Shown: positions 5,056-44,986 of the stretch, piece by piece | How positions within the stretch are numbered: position 1 is the stretch's first letter | Layout: each line of letters begins with the position of its first letter | Source: Bacilli bacterium | GTDB lineage: Bacteria; Bacillota_I; Bacilli_A; RF39; UBA660 | NCBI GenBank assembly: GCA_017553685.1 | Contig: JAFZKH010000009.1 | Span: 36,945-100,944, forward strand | Direction: 5' to 3' | Length of the DNA: 64,000 bases | Notes under the pieces: generated by a model | Told to the model about the DNA's origin: nothing | The model's database searches: none | The model's input: only the letters and a program-made list of their open reading frames with translations | Program-made: the position numbers and the translations under genes

Positions 5056-6703
5056 TCTTTTCCCCTGATTTTTTAAATATTTTTTTAATTTTACCCAATA
5101 ATTCTTTAGCAATTACTGTTTTAAATAATGGTTTATATGTAAATATAAAGTATACTATCATACCTACTACTGCATATATAGCTATTATTATAATTGCATT
5201 ACTTCTAGATGTTGGAACTATATCTATAAACATTCTTAGGATAAATAAACTTGCAAGCATAGCACCAGATCCAAATAATATCCAGAATAATCCTTTAAAT
5301 GTATCCTTCATACTTATTTTCATTTTCTTAATCATATAAATAATTGAAATAATATATGTTGATGAAAGTGATATAAGAGTACCAGATATAGTACCTACAT
5401 ATGGAGGTAATCCTAGTTTATATGCTCCAACCATAAGTGGATATTGTAATCCTGCTTTTAATATAAGTTCTACTATTAAAGCTATAAATACTATTTTATA
5501 TTTATTAACAGATTGCATTATTATAAGTGTGATAGTATATAAAGAAGATGCTATAGCAGCAAATATAAATATACTAAACACTGAAGCAGCAAGTCCATGA
5601 TTTTGGTAGAATACTTCCCAAACTGGTTTTGCTAAAAATGATAATCCAATAGTCATTGGAACACCAAAATATAATAATATTGTATATGCTTCATTAACTC
5701 TTTTTCTAACTGAATCCATATCATTTTTAACATAACTAGATGTTATATGTGGAAGTAAACTAGTAACTAATCCTGTAGCTATTGCAATAATAATTTGGTT
5801 TAATTTAACACCCCAAGTAGTTAATACTCCCATAACAGTTTCAGCTTTGGTGATTGTATAACCTGTATAATTAACGAGTATCTTAACTACTGTAAACATA
5901 TTTATTAATGCACATGCATTACCTACTGCATCTATTAATATAAATGGAACAGCATATTTAATAATCTTTAACCATATTTCTTTTGTAGAAATATTTTTTT
6001 CTTCGTCTTTTGGTTTTTGATTAACTAAGAATATATCTTTATTAGTTTTAATCTTAATTAATAAATAAAATAATGCAAATAAACCACCAATAGTAGCACC
6101 AAAACAAGCGACAGCTACAGATGTTCTAACATCATGAGATAATTTCATAGCAAAATAACTACCAAATACTACTATGGCTACTCTAAATAATTGTTCTACT
6201 ACTTGGCTAAGTGATGACTCAGTCATATATTTATTACCTTGTAAGTATCCTCTTGATACTGATAATGGAGGAATAACAAGTATAGCTGTAGCAATAACTC
6301 TAATAACATATACTATATCTTCAATAGTATTTCCACCTTCAATATCTCCAATTATCATTTTTGCAATTGGTTCTGCAAATATAAATAATAAAGCAAATAT
6401 AACAACAGCAAAAGCCATTATTACTCTTCTACCTTGTTTATAAACTCTTTCTCTTGTATGGTAATAACCAAGTGCATTGTATTCACTAACAAGTTTTGAT
6501 ATAGCAAGCGGAATACCTACAGTAGATATAGATAAGAAAGTAGCATATATAGTATATGCATAACCATATAATGCTCCTCCTTGTTCTCCTATTACTTTAT
6601 AAAATGGTACTACATAAATAATACCTATAATTTTAGTTAAAATAATCGCAAAAGTTGCTATAAAGGCTCCTTGTTTAAAGGAACTTTTTTTCATTTTTCC
6701 CAT
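5039..6703 (-). CDS. murJ: MurJ/YtgP-type lipid II flippase (polysaccharide biosynthesis family)
   Basis: ~14 TMs, GIPLAISKLVSEY, RGYLQG, SQVVEQLFR. Confidence 0.8.
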   Translation of the reverse strand: MGKMKKSSFKQGAFIATFAIILTKIIGIIYVVPFYKVIGEQGGALYGYAYTIYATFLSISTVGIPLAISKLVSEYNALGYYHTRERVYKQGRRVIMAFAVVIFALLFIFAEPIAKMIIGDIEGGNTIEDIVYVIRVIATAILVIPPLSVSRGYLQGNKYMTESSLSQVVEQLFRVAIVVFGSYFAMKLSHDVRTSVAVACFGATIGGLFALFYLLIKIKTNKDIFLVNQKPKDEEKNISTKEIWLKIIKYAVPFILIDAVGNACALINMFTVVKILVNYTGYTITKAETVMGVLTTWGVKLNQIIIAIATGLVTSLLPHITSSYVKNDMDSVRKRVNEAYTILLYFGVPMTIGLSFLAKPVWEVFYQNHGLAASVFSIFIFAAIASSLYTITLIIMQSVNKYKIVFIALIVELILKAGLQYPLMVGAYKLGLPPYVGTISGTLISLSSTYIISIIYMIKKMKISMKDTFKGLFWILFGSGAMLASLFILRMFIDIVPTSRSNAIIIIAIYAVVGMIVYFIFTYKPLFKTVIAKELLGKIKKIFKKSGEKNEIKK

Positions 6704-40496: not shown

Positions 40497-40632
40497 ATTT
40501 CCTCCATACAAATATTAAAGAGTGAGGATCACCTCACTCTTCTTCGTTGTTAACATAGATTATAACAAAGATATTATATAATGTAAACACTTTTTATATA
40601 ATAATGTGATATAATTATATAGAGGTAATAAT

Positions 40633-41331
40633 ATGAAAAAGTATAAAGATTTGTTTATAGCACTTTTAACATTCTTATTATATTTTTTATTTAGTCCATT
40701 AATTGAAGAAATACTTCATTTATTTAATATAAATATTAAGAATTTAAATATAATTCCATTAAATATAATTTTAATAGTAGTAGATTTATCATTTATGGGA
40801 ATAGTATTCTTAATACATAAGAATGAAATAATAAAAGATTTTAAAGAGTTTATAGGTAATAAAGGTAAATGGTTCTTTAAATATATAGGATTATTTATAG
40901 GTTCAGTAGTTGTTATGGGAGCACTTAATCTAATACTATCTAAAATAACTAATATGAGTTCTAGTGAAAATGAAGAACTAGTTAGAGAGTTAATTAAAAA
41001 GTTCCCTGTTTATATGGCTGTGTCTACAATTTTATATGCGCCTTTTGTAGAAGAAATACTATTTAGAAAATGTGTTAGAAAAATAATACCTGGTAATGAT
41101 AAATTAGTTAAAATAGCATATATTTTAATTAGTGCAATTATATTTGGTTTAGTACATGTTATATCACTAGATGCTACATTTAATGACTTTTTAATGGGTA
41201 TACCATATATGGTTGTAGGTTTATCTCTTGGTTATATATATATTAAAACTGATAATGTATTTGCTACTATGCAATTTCATTTAATGCATAATACTATATT
41301 ACTTATATTACAGTTAGTAATGAGAGGTTAA
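40633..41331 (+). CDS. CPBP (CAAX/Abi) intramembrane metalloprotease
   Basis: EEILFR, FGLVH, HLMHN. Confidence 0.92.
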   Translation: MKKYKDLFIALLTFLLYFLFSPLIEEILHLFNINIKNLNIIPLNIILIVVDLSFMGIVFLIHKNEIIKDFKEFIGNKGKWFFKYIGLFIGSVVVMGALNLILSKITNMSSSENEELVRELIKKFPVYMAVSTILYAPFVEEILFRKCVRKIIPGNDKLVKIAYILISAIIFGLVHVISLDATFNDFLMGIPYMVVGLSLGYIYIKTDNVFATMQFHLMHNTILLILQLVMRG

Positions 41332-41332
41332 T

Positions 41333-42190
41333 ATGAAAAAAAGAATAGAAGAAGATTTAGAAGAGAAAAAGAGTCATAAACTTAGAATATTTATTTTTAT
41401 ACTTATAGCTATTATTTCATTTATTATTGTTTATGGTAGATTTATAGAACCTAGTTTTATGTTAGTAAATGAAATAAATATAGAAGATAATAATCTTAAT
41501 AAATCATTTGGTACTTTAAAAATAGTACATTTTACAGATATATTATATGGAAGTACTACTGATATAGAAACTATTAAAAAAATAGTTAATACTATTAATG
41601 ATAAAAAAGGAGATATAGTTATATATACTGGAGACCTAGTATATGAAGATACTTCTTTAGATGAGAAAGCTATTAATGAAATAGAAGAAGAATTATCTAA
41701 AATAAAAGCTAAGTATGTTAAATATTATGTTAGTGGTGATAATGATTCTAAGTTTGCTAGTTATGATACTTTAATGGCTAATGCAGGATTTGTATCATTA
41801 AATGATGATTATAAAATACTATATAATGAAGAAGCAGATTCTATATTAATTAGTGGTATTAAATATAACTCTAAATTAACATTCTTAGATGATATTCATT
41901 ATGATGGGTTTAAGATTAATATAATGCATACTCCAGATACAATGGATAAGATAGATCATTTAAACTATAATTATGTGTTTGCAGGGCATTCTTTATATAA
42001 CCAAATAAATATACCTGGAATAGATAAATTACTTCTTAAAAAGGGTTCTAATATGTATTATAAGAGTCATTATAAGACTAATGATACTAATCTATATATA
42101 AGTAATGGATTTGGTTCTGATACATTTAAATTTAGACTTAATAGTATTCCATCTATTAATGTATATAAAATTAAAAATACATCTAAATGA
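41333..42190 (+). CDS. Membrane-anchored metallophosphoesterase (YkuE-like, divergent)
   Basis: HFTD, YTGDL, GDND, MHTPD, AGHS. Confidence 0.88.
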   Translation: MKKRIEEDLEEKKSHKLRIFIFILIAIISFIIVYGRFIEPSFMLVNEINIEDNNLNKSFGTLKIVHFTDILYGSTTDIETIKKIVNTINDKKGDIVIYTGDLVYEDTSLDEKAINEIEEELSKIKAKYVKYYVSGDNDSKFASYDTLMANAGFVSLNDDYKILYNEEADSILISGIKYNSKLTFLDDIHYDGFKINIMHTPDTMDKIDHLNYNYVFAGHSLYNQINIPGIDKLLLKKGSNMYYKSHYKTNDTNLYISNGFGSDTFKFRLNSIPSINVYKIKNTSK

Positions 42191-42226: not shown

Positions 42227-43240
42227 ATGAAAAAATATATAATTGGAATTATGTTTTGTTTAGTTCACTTCATACTAGAAGTAACTTGTTTTTATACATT
42301 AGCAGCTTATACAAGTAGTAATTTATTTCCAATAATAGCTTTAATGTATGATTTATTTGCTTTTGTTCCACAAGGTTTAATCGGAGCATTTAGTGACAAA
42401 TTTAGAAAAGTACATATAGGTATTATTGGTTTAGTTTTAACTTTATTTGCTCTTATAAGTTTAAAGTTTAATTTACCAGTATATGTAATATTTACATTAC
42501 TTACTATTGGTAATGCATTAGTACATGTAGAAGGAGCAGAAAGTACACTTAGAACTTCTGAAGGAAAAATGTTTCCGAGTGCTCTATTTGTAGCAGGAGG
42601 AGCCTTTGGTATTATTACAGGTAAATTATTATTTCAAAATAATATAAGTGTAGAGTTTATTATGCTTGCAAATGTAATTGCTTTATTAATAGCAATAATT
42701 GCATATAGATTTAGAAAAGATGAAGATAATAAATTAGAAGAATATAACTATGATAATACTAAAATTAATACTGCTATACTAATAATACTTGCAGTATTTG
42801 TAGTAGCAGTTAGATCATATTCTAGTTATGGTATACCTACAGGATGGAATAAGACTACTCTTCAAACAATATTATTATTCTGTTTTATGGGTATAGGTAA
42901 AGCTTTAGGAGGTCTATTAATAGATAAAACAAATATTAAAGTTACATCTATTGTAAGTACTGTTTTAGCTCTACCTTTCCTATTATTTGGTAATCATAAT
43001 ATGTATCTATCATTAATTGGAATAATGTTATTTAGTATGACTATGCCAGTAACATTAGCAATATTAGTTTCTAGATTAAAAAAGAGTCCTGGTATAGCAT
43101 TTGGATTAACTACTATAGGACTATTTATAGGTTGTTTACCTGCTTTCTTATTTACAATTGATTCACTGCTTATAAATGGTATAGTATTTACTATTCTTAC
43201 AATTCTTTGTACAATAATATTAGTAAAGATAGAAAAATAA
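42227..43240 (+). CDS. MFS-like multi-pass membrane protein
   Basis: ~11-12 TMs, GAFSDKF and GLLIDKT loop motifs. Confidence 0.7.
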   Translation: MKKYIIGIMFCLVHFILEVTCFYTLAAYTSSNLFPIIALMYDLFAFVPQGLIGAFSDKFRKVHIGIIGLVLTLFALISLKFNLPVYVIFTLLTIGNALVHVEGAESTLRTSEGKMFPSALFVAGGAFGIITGKLLFQNNISVEFIMLANVIALLIAIIAYRFRKDEDNKLEEYNYDNTKINTAILIILAVFVVAVRSYSSYGIPTGWNKTTLQTILLFCFMGIGKALGGLLIDKTNIKVTSIVSTVLALPFLLFGNHNMYLSLIGIMLFSMTMPVTLAILVSRLKKSPGIAFGLTTIGLFIGCLPAFLFTIDSLLINGIVFTILTILCTIILVKIEK

Positions 43241-43252
43241 GGAGGTATATAT

Positions 43253-43420
43253 ATGTTTAGATTTTTAGATGTTATTGACCCAGATTTTCCAAGAAATACA
43301 CCTACTGTTAATAATGGGGATCCTAAAACATTAATTATTATAATTACATCTGTGGTTGTAGTTTTAGTAATTGCAGTTTTAGTTACATTACTAATTAGAA
43401 AAAATATTAAAAAGAAATAG
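43253..43420 (+). CDS. 55-aa single-pass membrane peptide 1
   Basis: Hand-translated MFRFLDVIDPDFPRNTPTVNNGDPKTLIIIITSVVVVLVIAVLVTLLIRKNIKKK, RBS GGAGGT. Confidence 0.85.
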   Translation: MFRFLDVIDPDFPRNTPTVNNGDPKTLIIIITSVVVVLVIAVLVTLLIRKNIKKK

Positions 43421-43429
43421 GAGGATAAT

Positions 43430-43555
43430 ATGTTTTTAGATATAGCAAGACCATCTGATACTCCTACTACTTTAGCTATTATAATAGCTGTTGCAATAGT
43501 ATTAGTAATAGGAGCATTAGTAACTCTAATCATAAAATTAAAACATGCTAAATAG
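43430..43555 (+). CDS. 41-aa single-pass membrane peptide 2
   Basis: Hand-translated MFLDIARPSDTPTTLAIIIAVAIVLVIGALVTLIIKLKHAK, RBS GGAGG, stop overlaps the next start. Confidence 0.85.
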   Translation: MFLDIARPSDTPTTLAIIIAVAIVLVIGALVTLIIKLKHAK

Positions 43556-43895
43556 TATATTACAAAGTTTATTATTAACTTTATTAATTGAATTATTTAT
43601 ATCTTTAGTACTAGGTATAAGAGGAAAAGATTTACTAAGAATAACACTTATAAATATATTAACTAATGTACCATTAAATATATTAGTTAGTTTATTATAT
43701 ACTGTTATAGATAATAATATTGTCTTTTATGTAATAGTACCTGTATTAGAAGTATTAATAGTATTAATTGAAGGAACATACTTTAAAAAACTTAATAAGA
43801 GTATTATAGGTCCATATAAATTATCTTTATTATTAAATGGATTTTCTTATAGTTTTTGTTTTGTATGTTTATTATTAGAAAAAATAATAAAATAA
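43545..43895 (+). CDS. 4-TM hypothetical membrane protein with repeated E...N motifs
   Basis: LTLLIE..LINILTNVPLN and EVLIVLIEG..LLNGFSY. Confidence 0.75.
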   Translation: MLNSILQSLLLTLLIELFISLVLGIRGKDLLRITLINILTNVPLNILVSLLYTVIDNNIVFYVIVPVLEVLIVLIEGTYFKKLNKSIIGPYKLSLLLNGFSYSFCFVCLLLEKIIK

Positions 43896-43920
43896 AAAAT
43901 ACATCGTTTGATGTATTTTT
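43895..43920. terminator. Bidirectional terminator (copy 2)
   Basis: aaaaatacatc-gttt-gatgtattttt. Confidence 0.8.
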
Positions 43921-44239
43921 ATTTTTTTAAATCATCTATATATTTTTCTAATGTTTTAGCATTAGGTCCAAGTATTATCTTTAATTGATTATCTATTTCT
44001 ACTATACCTTTAGCACCCATCTTTTGAATACCTTCTTTATTAACAATAGATACATCTCTTAAAGTTACTTTAAATCTAGACATATTAACTTCCATACTAA
44101 TAATATTGTCTTTTCCACCTAGATAATCTACTAACTTATTAGCTTCTACATGGAAATCTTTTTTAGTAGCTTTTAATACTATTAATAATATAAATATAAG
44201 TATAAAACCTATAATTAAATATTGCATCCAATATTGCAT
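43919..44239 (-). CDS. Stand-alone membrane-anchored PTS EIIB-like domain lacking the catalytic Cys
   Basis: LGGKDNI..NMSRFKV..GAKGIV..IILG. Confidence 0.8.
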   Translation of the reverse strand: MQYWMQYLIIGFILIFILLIVLKATKKDFHVEANKLVDYLGGKDNIISMEVNMSRFKVTLRDVSIVNKEGIQKMGAKGIVEIDNQLKIILGPNAKTLEKYIDDLKK

Positions 44240-44278: not shown

Positions 44279-44755
44279 TTAGTAAACTATTTTATCTTTA
44301 TCTTCTTCATATCTTTTAAAGACTTCTAAAGCATCTTCTCTATTCATAGATTTTAATTTTAATACAGAATTATCCTCTATATTATTAGTTAATTTTTCTA
44401 AATAATCATATATAAAATCATCTCTAAATCCTATATTTGCTGCATCTTCTTTTGTATTGGCATAATATACCTTTTTAATATTAGACCATATAATAGCAGA
44501 TAAACACATAGGGCATGGATAACATGATGTATATATTTCACAACCTGTTAAATCATGAGTACCTAATTCTTTACAAGCATTTCTAATAGCAATTATCTCA
44601 GCATGTGCAGTAGGATCATTATCCTTTATTACTCTATTTATTCCTTTACCTATTATCTTTCCATCTTTAACTACGCAGGCTCCAAAAGGACCTCCATAAT
44701 TCTTATCAAAATTATCATCTGATAAATCAATTGCAACATCCATAAATTCGTTCAT
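44279..44755 (-). CDS. Nucleoside/guanine deaminase (GuaD-like)
   Basis: GGPFGA, DPTAHAE, PCPMC. Confidence 0.9.
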   Translation of the reverse strand: MNEFMDVAIDLSDDNFDKNYGGPFGACVVKDGKIIGKGINRVIKDNDPTAHAEIIAIRNACKELGTHDLTGCEIYTSCYPCPMCLSAIIWSNIKKVYYANTKEDAANIGFRDDFIYDYLEKLTNNIEDNSVLKLKSMNREDALEVFKRYEEDKDKIVY

Positions 44756-44830
44756 TATTATCACCTATAATAATTATAACATGTATATAAAAAATAAAAA
44801 AAGAACCATACGGTTCTTTTACATTTCAAA

Positions 44831-44906
44831 TGGTGGACCCTAGGGGGTTCGAACTCCTGACCTTCTCGGTGCAAGCGAGATGCTCTACCAGCTGAGCTAA
44901 GGGCCC
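44831..44906 (-). tRNA. tRNA-Ala (TGC)
   Basis: G3:U70 acceptor pair, loop CTTGCAC, CCA end. Confidence 0.96.
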
Positions 44907-44986
44907 ATTTCAAATAAGCAAATAAATTATAACATAACACTTTTTTATATGTCAACATATTTATAAAAAAAATAAAGGTATAACCT

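Follow-up and report, generated by a model that had tools for sequence, protein, structure and literature searches.

The question raised by this locus is what a protein with the major facilitator superfamily (MFS) fold, two micropeptides and a small polytopic membrane protein do together in one gene unit. The unit occupies positions 42227-43895 on the plus strand of a 64,000-nucleotide stretch (hereafter the window) of contig JAFZKH010000009.1 from a Bacilli bacterium, and was proposed in a first-pass annotation to be an undescribed membrane-peptide system. The unit was found to be one instance of a module with three kinds of parts: a divergent MFS protein with 12 transmembrane (TM) helices, a new 4-TM protein with an invariant cluster of Glu, Asn, Thr and Ser residues, and at least one tagged client protein. 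All the clients are built on one plan, consisting of an N-terminal tag, an ectodomain of about 5 to about 480 residues, a single TM helix and a basic stop-transfer tail. The interpretation which we place foremost, with a probability of roughly 0.4, is that a complex of the MFS and 4-TM proteins would recognize the extracytoplasmic tag on single-pass proteins, either to dock them or to bind them as tethered ligands.

The four genes were located on the plus strand in the list of open reading frames (ORFs) at 42227-43240 (MFS-fold protein, 337 aa, 12 TM helices), 43253-43420 (peptide 1, 55 aa), 43430-43555 (peptide 2, 41 aa) and 43545-43895 (4-TM protein, 116 aa). Peptide 1 is preceded by TAAGGAGG with the arrangement TAA-GGAGG-N7-ATG, in which the Shine-Dalgarno sequence abuts the MFS stop codon. 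The start of peptide 2 reads TAGGAGG-N5-ATG, where GGAGG overlaps the stop codon of peptide 1, and the 3' end of peptide 2 overlaps the 116-aa gene by 11 nt. The tight coupling of four genes, as initially described, was therefore confirmed with exact coordinates, including the overlaps of ribosome-binding sites with stop codons. The ratios of nonsynonymous to synonymous substitution rates (dN/dS) were 0.13-0.26 for peptide 1 (in comparison with the related loci L005 and L006) and 0.30-0.45 for peptide 2, while those of the flanking proteins were 0.12-0.22. Peptides 1 and 2 were considered to be real genes because their dN/dS values of 0.13-0.45 resemble those of the flanking proteins; orthologues of peptide 1 are also present in L005-L007. 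All four ORFs are genuine genes, coupled to one another and subject to purifying selection. On the minus strand, a 179-aa antisense ORF at 42994-43533 runs across the two peptide genes and the 3' end of the MFS gene. Comparable antisense 'shadow' ORFs cluster in 52 loci, and this ORF seems to reflect codon composition and not to be a gene.

Peptide 1 consists of the tag MFRF-LDVIDP, a spacer of about 20 aa, one TM helix and the basic tail RKNIKKK, and its predicted topology is N-out/C-in. In peptide 2 the tag MF-LDIARP is followed by a spacer of about 8 aa, a TM helix and the basic tail KLKHAK. According to the pairwise alignment, in which FLD..P and VLVIxxLVTLxI[KR] are shared, the two peptides are paralogues. 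They are minimal clients, composed of tag, anchor and tail only.

To determine how far the arrangement extends, about 90 loci with an MFS homologue were gathered, 84 of which were non-redundant and entered the co-occurrence count. A member of the 4-TM family, detected by its hidden Markov model, adjoined the MFS gene in 79 of these 84 loci; the exceptions were mostly contigs ending just after the MFS gene. The reverse held as well: an MFS gene was found beside each of three distant 4-TM homologues, and distant 4-TM starting points (profile E-values 2e-11 and 4e-16) led again to an MFS gene and small TM genes. Motif peptides accompanied the MFS/4-TM pair even at about 30-35% identity and in unrelated genomic contexts. 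All-against-all clustering of flanking ORFs revealed only two further recurrent neighbours, the tagged proteins with bacterial SH3 (SH3b) domains in 33 loci and the tagged acidic proteins in 18 loci. The other flanking genes varied, e.g. a ribosomal-protein operon in L001, acetyltransferases in L004 and rimP-nusA-infB in the window. The proposal of a dedicated module thus stands: the two proteins do not co-occur rarely, and the MFS protein did not turn out to be an ordinary transporter with unrelated neighbours. ABC ATPases near some loci were considered as a part of the module and rejected, their type and position being heterogeneous. In two near-identical distant loci, L090 and L091, the genes directly upstream of the MFS gene (L090, 2613-3844, plus strand) code for an ECF-type sigma factor and for a two-TM protein of 196 aa that may be an anti-sigma factor; this arrangement may be a regulatory link to envelope stress.

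The carriers of the module were rumen and gut Bacilli, Erysipelotrichaceae, Ruminococcus, Acutalibacteraceae and other Clostridia, Anaerovoracaceae, Mogibacterium, several Saccharibacteria and the cultured 'Ruminococcaceae bacterium P7' (L022). The window itself was 91% identical to a metagenome-assembled genome (MAG) of a sheep-rumen 'Bacilli bacterium'. The complete module was present in Saccharibacteria MAGs from ruminant guts (L025, L028, L038, L039, L050, L058, L070) and in L092, from an unclassified 'bacterium'. The identity of the MFS protein to that of the window was 45-53% in Saccharibacteria and about 45-52% in Clostridia, and these similar values suggest horizontal transfer of the module between co-resident lineages. 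No module homologues were detected in 72,556 plasmids and 50,697 phages. An origin from mobile elements or defence systems was rejected on the basis of this result and of the absence of PADLOC and PHROG matches. By its genomic neighbourhoods the module is conserved, chromosomal and co-inherited across very distant lineages.

The motif FLD[VI]xxP, noticed in the two peptides by the first-pass annotation, generalizes to Phi-[L/A]-D-[V/I/A/M]-x-x-P (Phi, hydrophobic residue), with a TM helix and then a basic tail behind it. The tag was detected with a regular expression and hydropathy thresholds; the pattern had to lie within the first 45 residues and be followed by a strong TM segment and at least two K/R residues. 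These features were combined in 83 of 2,682 ORFs on the strand and side of the module and in only 1 of 5,837 other ORFs of the same loci, which is far above chance. Within the window, 2 of 335 ORFs carried the combination, and these were the two peptides. The profile around the tag Asp was characterized by A or L at position -1 and P at +4. In very distant loci the tag was recovered as LDVAEP, TDVAAAP, FDIPPGP, LDIPPRP, RLDVAVGP and YADIPVPP. As a sequence pattern, the tag is thereby specific to genes beside the module. It was not found to be represented in Pfam (2025), NCBIfam (2026) or the searched literature.

The 104 distinct tagged proteins fell into two kinds. In the leaderless clients, the Asp is located at residue 3-15 behind a short, variable and rather hydrophobic stretch, as in MF-LD, MFRF-LD, MNISNIFQI-LD and MFREFVYNT-AD. 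The Sec-type clients, about half of all, carry a classical Sec signal peptide ending with ...V-x-A, and the Asp is the predicted +1 residue of signal peptidase I, as in ...FVKA|DMGAP, ...AFA|DVGGP and ...AYA|DIPVPP. The ectodomains ranged from a few residues in micropeptides, through acidic or Thr/Pro-rich low-complexity stalks of 100-200 residues in Ruminococcus, to 200-480 residues with SH3b domains (Pfam SH3_3). At the C-terminal end of nearly all the tagged proteins, a single TM helix is followed by a cluster of K/R residues and by a cytoplasmic tail that varies. The clients are hence single-pass proteins of N-out/C-in orientation with the tag outside, which is certain for the Sec-type and is indicated by the positive-inside rule for the leaderless ones. 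The distance between the tag and the TM helix varied from about 4 to 479 residues (median 27.5) with no fixed spacing; therefore, the tag appears to be read independently of the anchor. The initial idea of a module for small peptides needs to be widened, as the same tag also heads large SH3b and acidic-stalk type-I membrane proteins, often directly behind the Sec signal peptide, and occasionally at positions unlinked to the module.

From 1 to 4 or more tagged genes, encoding proteins of 39-724 aa, were counted per locus, and they stood before, after or between the genes of the MFS/4-TM pair. L154 (60-2972, plus strand) contained four or more clients in a tandem array. A scan of metagenome DNA for KADMGAP yielded 120 matches, most of which were chance matches in unrelated frames. 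About ten were genuine Sec-type clients, seven of them beside an MFS/4-TM pair, one in an array of at least four clients with its upstream end cut, one unlinked and one on a contig that was too short. In the unlinked case, L204, a tagged SH3b client (…FVKA|DMGAP; 5161-6555, minus strand) lies between jag/yidC/rnpA and mnmE/mnmG/rsmG, and no MFS or 4-TM gene was present within 5-6 kb of it. As the loci reach no more than 5 kb to either side, they give a poor sample of how many clients are unlinked. An 816-aa ORF of L148 (5924-8374, minus strand) opens with a signal peptide and ADVAGP and contains a second tag sequence, KADMGAP, at residue 383; it represents either an in-frame fusion of two client genes or an artefact of assembly or read-through. 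Long tandem repeats were seen in the cytoplasmic tails of some clients, namely in the Ruminococcus clients of L014 and L020 and the Coprovivens client of L035; examples are NQGGYNQNNYP and PPQYPNNGM units and, in L035, roughly eight near-identical DSDATIEHKELVRLLDEAL units. The repeat-bearing tails hint at an intracellular role for the clients as well.

A separate subfamily was formed by peptides of 42-55 aa encoded directly between the MFS and 4-TM genes (L066, L067, L076, L077, L080, L083 and about 25 more loci). These sandwiched peptides lack the Pro of the tag and have Phi-Phi-[D/N]-x-x-Phi-Phi near the N-terminus and, immediately behind the TM helix, a conserved [KR]KE[LIV]K. In such loci it is the downstream SH3b proteins that bear the full tag. 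The sandwiched peptide may be a resident subunit or a degenerate client.

The 337-aa protein was modelled with AlphaFold2 (AF2) on 22 homologues, resulting in a mean predicted local distance difference test score (pLDDT) of 89 and a predicted TM-score (pTM) of 0.87. The model contains 12 TM helices, two of which are kinked. With Foldseek, 222 PDB matches were obtained at E <= 0.001, and the best 50 were all MFS transporters with query-normalized TM-scores (TMq) of 0.58-0.75. The top match was the bacterial homologue of monocarboxylate transporters (MCT) 6g9x, and SfMCT, VMAT1/2, FLVCR2, NorA, LmrP and OxlT were among the matches with TM-scores of about 0.7. The protein itself matched no Pfam or NCBIfam model, and its family profile gave only noise with PDB sequences (E >= 2). 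Distant relatives, found with the family profile at whole-library E-values of about 1e-34 to 1e-42, scored 34.2-41.8 bits on Pfam MFS_1 (gathering cut-off 33.4). The MFS_1 membership of the protein rests on this homology chain because only the distant relatives pass the threshold. Some of them bear the Joint Genome Institute label 'FSR family, fosmidomycin-resistance-like'. A word-indexed search resulted in 1,438 homologues, all unnamed or 'hypothetical', and an exhaustive profile search in 1,843 representatives at 50% identity. The term 'MFS-like' used in the first-pass annotation was hence right, both by fold and by the homology chain.

Motif A of the superfamily (G-x3-D-[RK]-x-G-[RK]-[RK]) was found in loops 2-3 and 8-9. 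The motif-A-like stretches are G53-AFS-D57-KFRK after TM2 and G224-K-A-x-G-G-x3-D233-K after TM8, with the consensus GxxxDKxRK and GKxxGGxxxD, respectively; G53, D57, G224, K225, G228, G229 and D233 are 85-100% conserved, and TM5 is rich in Gly. H14, E18, D42, P48, Q49, H100, E105 and R196 were invariant in the 22 homologues. Over 120 representatives at 50% identity, H14 and D/E18 in TM1 and D/N42 and Q49 in TM2 were invariant or nearly so, and N96 and H100 in TM4, R196 near the outer end of TM7 and W207 in the extracytoplasmic loop 7-8 were also kept. The polar TM residues pointed out in advance (HFILE, YDLFAFVPQ, GNALVHVEG, VRSY) therefore held up as conserved in both sets. The protein shares the 6+6 fold of 12 TM helices, the motif-A-like loops and the Gly-rich TM5 with the superfamily, but it differs in being short, in its central loop of 16 residues and in invariants of its own, i.e. 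H-x3-[D/E] in TM1, N-x3-H in TM4, R in TM7 and W in loop 7-8. We know of no MFS family with obligate pairing to a 4-TM protein and tagged single-pass proteins. The 337-aa protein is a strongly divergent branch and a new family of the MFS superfamily. Unusually long family members were checked for Rosetta-stone fusions, and only low-complexity extensions were detected.

The AF2 model of the 116-aa protein is a 4-helix bundle with a pLDDT of 93.4. Sequence searches retrieved as its relatives only unnamed proteins of 93-152 aa. In two alignments, one of 23 and one of 44 diverse members with identities as low as 22%, T12 and E16 in TM1, T40 and N41 in TM2, E69 and E76 in TM3 and N98 and S101 in TM4 were invariant, which bears out the membrane-embedded Glu and Asn residues (E16, N41, E69, E76, N98) of the first-pass annotation. 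No match to the model was obtained in the PDB with Foldseek (best E = 1.4), the family profile found no relative among PDB sequences (noise, E >= 2), and no Pfam or NCBIfam match was detected. By the positive-inside rule, the protein is predicted to be N-out/C-out with loops 1 and 3 (GIRGKD, YFKKLNKS) in the cytoplasm; therefore, the polar cluster would be located in the middle-to-cytoplasmic half of the bilayer. TRAP DctQ, TTT TctB, SMR/EmrE and GtrA are similar in having about 115-125 aa and four TM helices. EmrE has a membrane-embedded Glu in TM1, and DctQ and TctB have a 12-TM partner. In contrast to this likeness in size, the 4-TM protein had no Pfam match to DctQ, TctB, EmrE or GtrA at E <= 1, and the Foldseek comparison with EmrE and Gdx gave E-values of about 4-10 and TM-scores of about 0.25-0.3. 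The 116-aa protein is a new 4-TM family with no detectable relative of known function or structure.

Two other relationships of the 4-TM protein were tried and rejected. As a CPBP/Rce1-like protease it lacks the motifs EExxxR, FxxxH and HxxxN/D and any conserved His; its hhalign probability against the neighbouring CPBP protein was 0.03%, and no Rce1-like match was found in Pfam. An internal 2+2 repeat, suggested by eye from E16~E76 and N37~N98, was not supported when the halves were aligned with hhalign (probability 2%, E 0.022).

For the docking or tethered-ligand interpretation, the following sequence of events is proposed. The MFS and 4-TM proteins would form one complex, because their genes are translationally coupled and nearly always adjacent, and at the outer membrane face this complex would act on the tag or together with it. 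The likeliest site for the tag would be the outward-facing cavity of the MFS protein together with loop 7-8, since H14, D/E18, Q49, N96, H100, R196 and W207 lie there. The TM helix and Lys/Arg tail of the client could pack against the 4-TM protein, with its conserved glutamates in the cytoplasmic half. As a tethered ligand, the docked tag would gate or couple the transporter; conversely, docking might keep surface proteins attached to the membrane by their N-termini. In this arrangement, the peptide encoded between the MFS and 4-TM genes would be a resident subunit and the other tagged proteins exchangeable partners.

Several observations weigh against this interpretation. The conserved polar cluster of the 4-TM protein is directed toward the cytoplasm, away from the tag, so that the role given to it is a guess. 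The sandwiched peptides of one large subfamily are without the Pro and often have Asn in place of Asp; therefore, 'subunit' and 'client' may differ. The strict tag pattern was missed in 19 of 76 loci, mostly owing to near-variants such as LDL..P and LDV....P. The variable copy number and size of the clients and the unlinked client suit substrates of processing or sorting as well or better. A pure docking model does not require the cleavage-like placement of the Asp, and the strictness of this Asp suggests that a free N-terminus or cleavage matters.

These last points lead to a processing or sorting system, in which the tag would mark the maturation site of the clients at the outer membrane face. 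The short leader or the signal peptide would be removed by cleavage immediately ahead of the Asp; additionally or instead, a covalent modification such as lipidation would be placed on the new N-terminus or on the Asp; the 4-TM or the MFS protein would be the enzyme, and the MFS protein might supply or remove a lipid or small-molecule co-substrate, comparable to the Lnt/LplT pairing. Such a system would explain why many varied clients, including arrays and an unlinked one, belong to one MFS/4-TM pair, why motif, TM helix and basic tail follow the grammar of known sorting signals, and why the Asp stands exactly at the predicted signal-peptidase +1 position in the Sec-type clients and, in the leaderless ones, behind a brief hydrophobic mini-leader that is poorly conserved and has A or L at -1. 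The invariant carboxylates of the 4-TM protein are also what a catalyst would have. However, that protein has no conserved His, Cys or Ser nucleophile, its predicted polar cluster is in the cytoplasmic half and thus on the wrong side for a reaction at the outer face, and cleavage of 2-4-residue leaders, as in the window, would be of little apparent use. An N-terminal tag is also unusable for a sortase-like transpeptidation attaching the mature protein, and no known sorting-enzyme family is conserved at the loci, the CPBP gene being lineage-specific. We consider processing possible, although on the unlikely side. The same clients speak against an ordinary hetero-oligomeric solute transporter composed of the 12-TM MFS protein, the 4-TM protein and single-pass subunits, in which the peptide motif would be an assembly interface only and the tagged SH3b proteins ancillary, as basigin is for MCT. 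It was likened to TRAP DctM/DctQ or to transporters with micropeptide subunits, and it agrees with the tight translational coupling, the occurrence, in most loci, of one or more small TM peptide genes between those of the MFS and 4-TM proteins, the MFS signature with conserved charged cavity-like residues typical of proton-coupled transporters, and some conservation in the client TM segments. One to four or more copies of 39-724 aa in one family would be unusual for stoichiometric subunits, which are also rarely unlinked, unlike the L204 client, and the conserved element is an extracytoplasmic tag 4-479 residues away from the TM helix, not a membrane-packing helix. A plain transporter is therefore doubtful.

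The topology of the leaderless clients would fit an insertase or N-tail translocase, flipping the tagged hydrophilic N-terminus of N-out/C-in proteins by an MFS lateral gate in the manner of lipid flippases, with the 4-TM protein giving a hydrophilic groove in the inner leaflet. Many clients have no signal peptide and yet 5-200 residues outside, including the long acidic stalks of Ruminococcus, and the polar cluster of the 4-TM protein would face the cytoplasmic leaflet like the grooves of YidC-type proteins. This explanation is improbable, as about half of the clients possess classical Sec signal peptides and the tag alike, the groove is acidic and so is the tag, and no MFS protein is known to move polypeptide segments. 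Small peptides of this kind might also belong to a bacteriocin- or toxin-like locus that encodes its exporter and immunity protein; this was brought to mind by small hydrophobic or cationic peptides near a transporter and a small polytopic protein, and by the CPBP/Abi-type protein upstream, whose family includes bacteriocin immunity proteins. Each peptide, however, has a TM helix of 20-23 residues and a Lys/Arg stop-transfer tail and so stays in the membrane of the producer, unlike leaderless and class II bacteriocins, which are secreted, soluble or amphipathic peptides lacking such an anchor, accompanied by an immunity gene and an ABC or MFS exporter and often carried on mobile elements. Moreover, the same tag is carried by SH3b membrane proteins of 250-720 aa, the CPBP gene is not conserved with the module, plasmid, phage, PADLOC and PHROG matches are lacking, and the module resides in housekeeping neighbourhoods. 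Chance neighbours with spurious small ORFs are ruled out by purifying selection and by synteny across phyla, and this whole line of explanation was judged to have hardly any probability. Among the roles offered in the first-pass annotation, i.e. export, processing, sensing or immunity, the bacteriocin/immunity role and the export of free peptides are consequently disfavoured, the latter because the clients carry a stop-transfer anchor; docking or regulation and processing are not discriminated.

Tripartite sorting signals on varied proteins are an established concept (PMC3237569, PMC11980579), and the module was compared with sortase/LPXTG, exosortase/PEP-CTERM, rhombosortase/GlyGly-CTERM, CPBP-type myxosortase/MYXO-CTERM and MrtJ/JDVT-CTERM. 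A short motif, a TM helix and a basic cluster on varied and even tiny proteins are common to all of them, as are many clients clustered by one polytopic membrane protein; the clients of the module are varied as well, and one of them (L204) was unlinked. In contrast, the tag of the module is N-terminal and 4-479 residues away from the TM helix, whereas the motifs of the known systems stand directly before a C-terminal TM helix, and an N-terminal tag is chemically unfit for acyl-enzyme transfer of the mature protein. The partners also differ: instead of a sortase, exosortase, rhomboid or CPBP enzyme, only the MFS and the new 4-TM protein were conserved beside the clients, and no known sorting-enzyme family was.

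Single-TM proteins encoded with or bound to a polytopic transporter are likewise found in AcrZ-AcrB, MgtS-MgtA, KdpF and basigin/embigin with MCT (SLC16). These partners, the bacterial ones of which are reviewed in PMC10710835, bind via the TM helix and have no shared extracytoplasmic N-terminal tag, and they are single dedicated proteins, in contrast to the 1-4 or more paralogues with interchangeable ectodomains in the module. A second comparison concerns ferroportin, an exporter of the MFS fold, and its ligand hepcidin. The N-terminus of hepcidin reads D-T-H-F-P, and hence D-x-x-x-P. Hepcidin protrudes into the outward-facing pocket of ferroportin and blocks transport (PMC10030120). The Asp-His pair D39/H43 at i/i+4 in TM1 of ferroportin (PMC12594662) resembles H14-x3-E18 in the 337-aa protein. 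On the other hand, there is no homology, ferroportin was absent from the best 50 Foldseek matches of the 337-aa model, and hepcidin is a soluble vertebrate hormone, whereas the module has membrane-tethered bacterial proteins. The likeness to hepcidin-ferroportin is an analogy of mechanism only, and metal transport by the module is unsupported.

No family for the peptides, the 4-TM protein or the clients of other loci was found in Pfam, NCBIfam, PADLOC and PHROGs, SH3_3 in the large clients being the only meaningful match, in agreement with the initial statement that no named system has this architecture. The literature searched on MFS proteins with small membrane-protein partners and on N-terminal tripartite sorting signals contained no description of the module. 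The module appears to be undescribed and outside the known kinds, because it has no known enzyme family, no C-terminal TM-adjacent motif and, unlike the micropeptide-transporter pairs, a tag; its proposed function is derived entirely from comparative genomics and structure prediction. We consider it about an even chance that D-Phi-x-x-P, a tag placed on the mature N-terminus of single-pass surface proteins or close to it, represents a new type of bacterial protein signal, which would be read at the outer face by an MFS-fold and 4-TM machine. In one version, the module may sort or mature proteins by an N-terminal pathway that has no relation to sortases, exosortases, rhombosortases and CPBP enzymes. 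In another, it may be a counterpart of hepcidin-ferroportin, where tethered peptides and cell-wall-binding SH3b proteins would plug and gate the transporter and thereby couple transport to the state of the envelope.

Of the neighbouring genes in the window, those upstream of the module encode a CPBP (Rce1-like) intramembrane protease (40633-41331, plus strand) and a YaeI/LpxG-like metallophosphoesterase (41333-42190, plus strand), both assigned with Pfam and NCBIfam. They are tightly coupled, with the CPBP stop at 41331 and the phosphoesterase start at 41333. The two genes were found beside the module only in the window and in its three closest relatives, L005-L007, and are context, outside the conserved module. 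The link to a CPBP protease drawn in the first-pass annotation was thus not upheld, the CPBP protein also having no profile similarity to the 4-TM protein. Likewise, an own promoter of the four-gene unit did not find support: only 36 nt separate the end of the upstream gene from the MFS start, a consensus scan detected 36 promoter-like hexamers around the module, compared with 41.5 expected from shuffles (DNA of about 25% G+C), and the best promoter-like site on the plus strand (40550-40577) was located between a terminator at 40518-40541 and the start of the CPBP gene. Because of the 36-nt gap, the chance level of the hexamers and the position of that site, transcription together with the CPBP and phosphoesterase genes is at least as likely as transcription from an own promoter, and the two genes probably share a transcript with the module.

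The terminator claimed for the unit was confirmed. An AT-rich 11-bp hairpin followed by a T-run (43895-43928, strandless; from folding and sequence) is a likely bidirectional intrinsic terminator. The hairpin at 43895-43920 with the T-run follows the last stop codon of the four genes and had a dG of -10.2 kcal/mol and a z of -4.05; it was overlooked by the consensus terminator scan because the stem has <3 G-C pairs. The terminator is common to the module and to the convergent gene at 43919-44239 (minus strand), whose 106-aa product combines a TM helix at its N-terminus with a stand-alone EIIB domain of the phosphotransferase system (Pfam PTS_EIIB, 8.6e-9). A membrane-anchored EIIB with no adjacent EIIC is unusual. 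Further on, a tRNA-Ala with the anticodon TGC was identified at 44831-44906 (minus strand) by ARAGORN and Rfam (64.7 bits). On its strand it stands upstream of the gene for a TadA-like deaminase (44279-44764, minus strand), and the 65-aa ORF at 44761-44958 (minus strand) is a mere translation across this tRNA.

The module is large and old, as the MFS protein alone forms 1,843 clusters at 50% identity, every component is annotated as 'hypothetical', and the module is kept in small-genome Bacilli of the gut and rumen. With either reading of its function, a rule is obtained for calling real small genes, i.e. tag, TM helix and basic tail beside an MFS/4-TM pair, which is useful for gene callers, Ribo-seq and proteomics, and a 4-helix membrane fold that is predicted to be new, with an invariant carboxylate cluster, is defined. 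If the tag were a sorting or maturation signal, an N-terminal pathway would join the known C-terminal ones, and surface proteins of uncultured gut bacteria would become predictable from sequence. If it were a tethered ligand, the module would contain the first bacterial MFS protein gated by membrane-anchored peptides, and a conserved class of micropeptides would receive a function.

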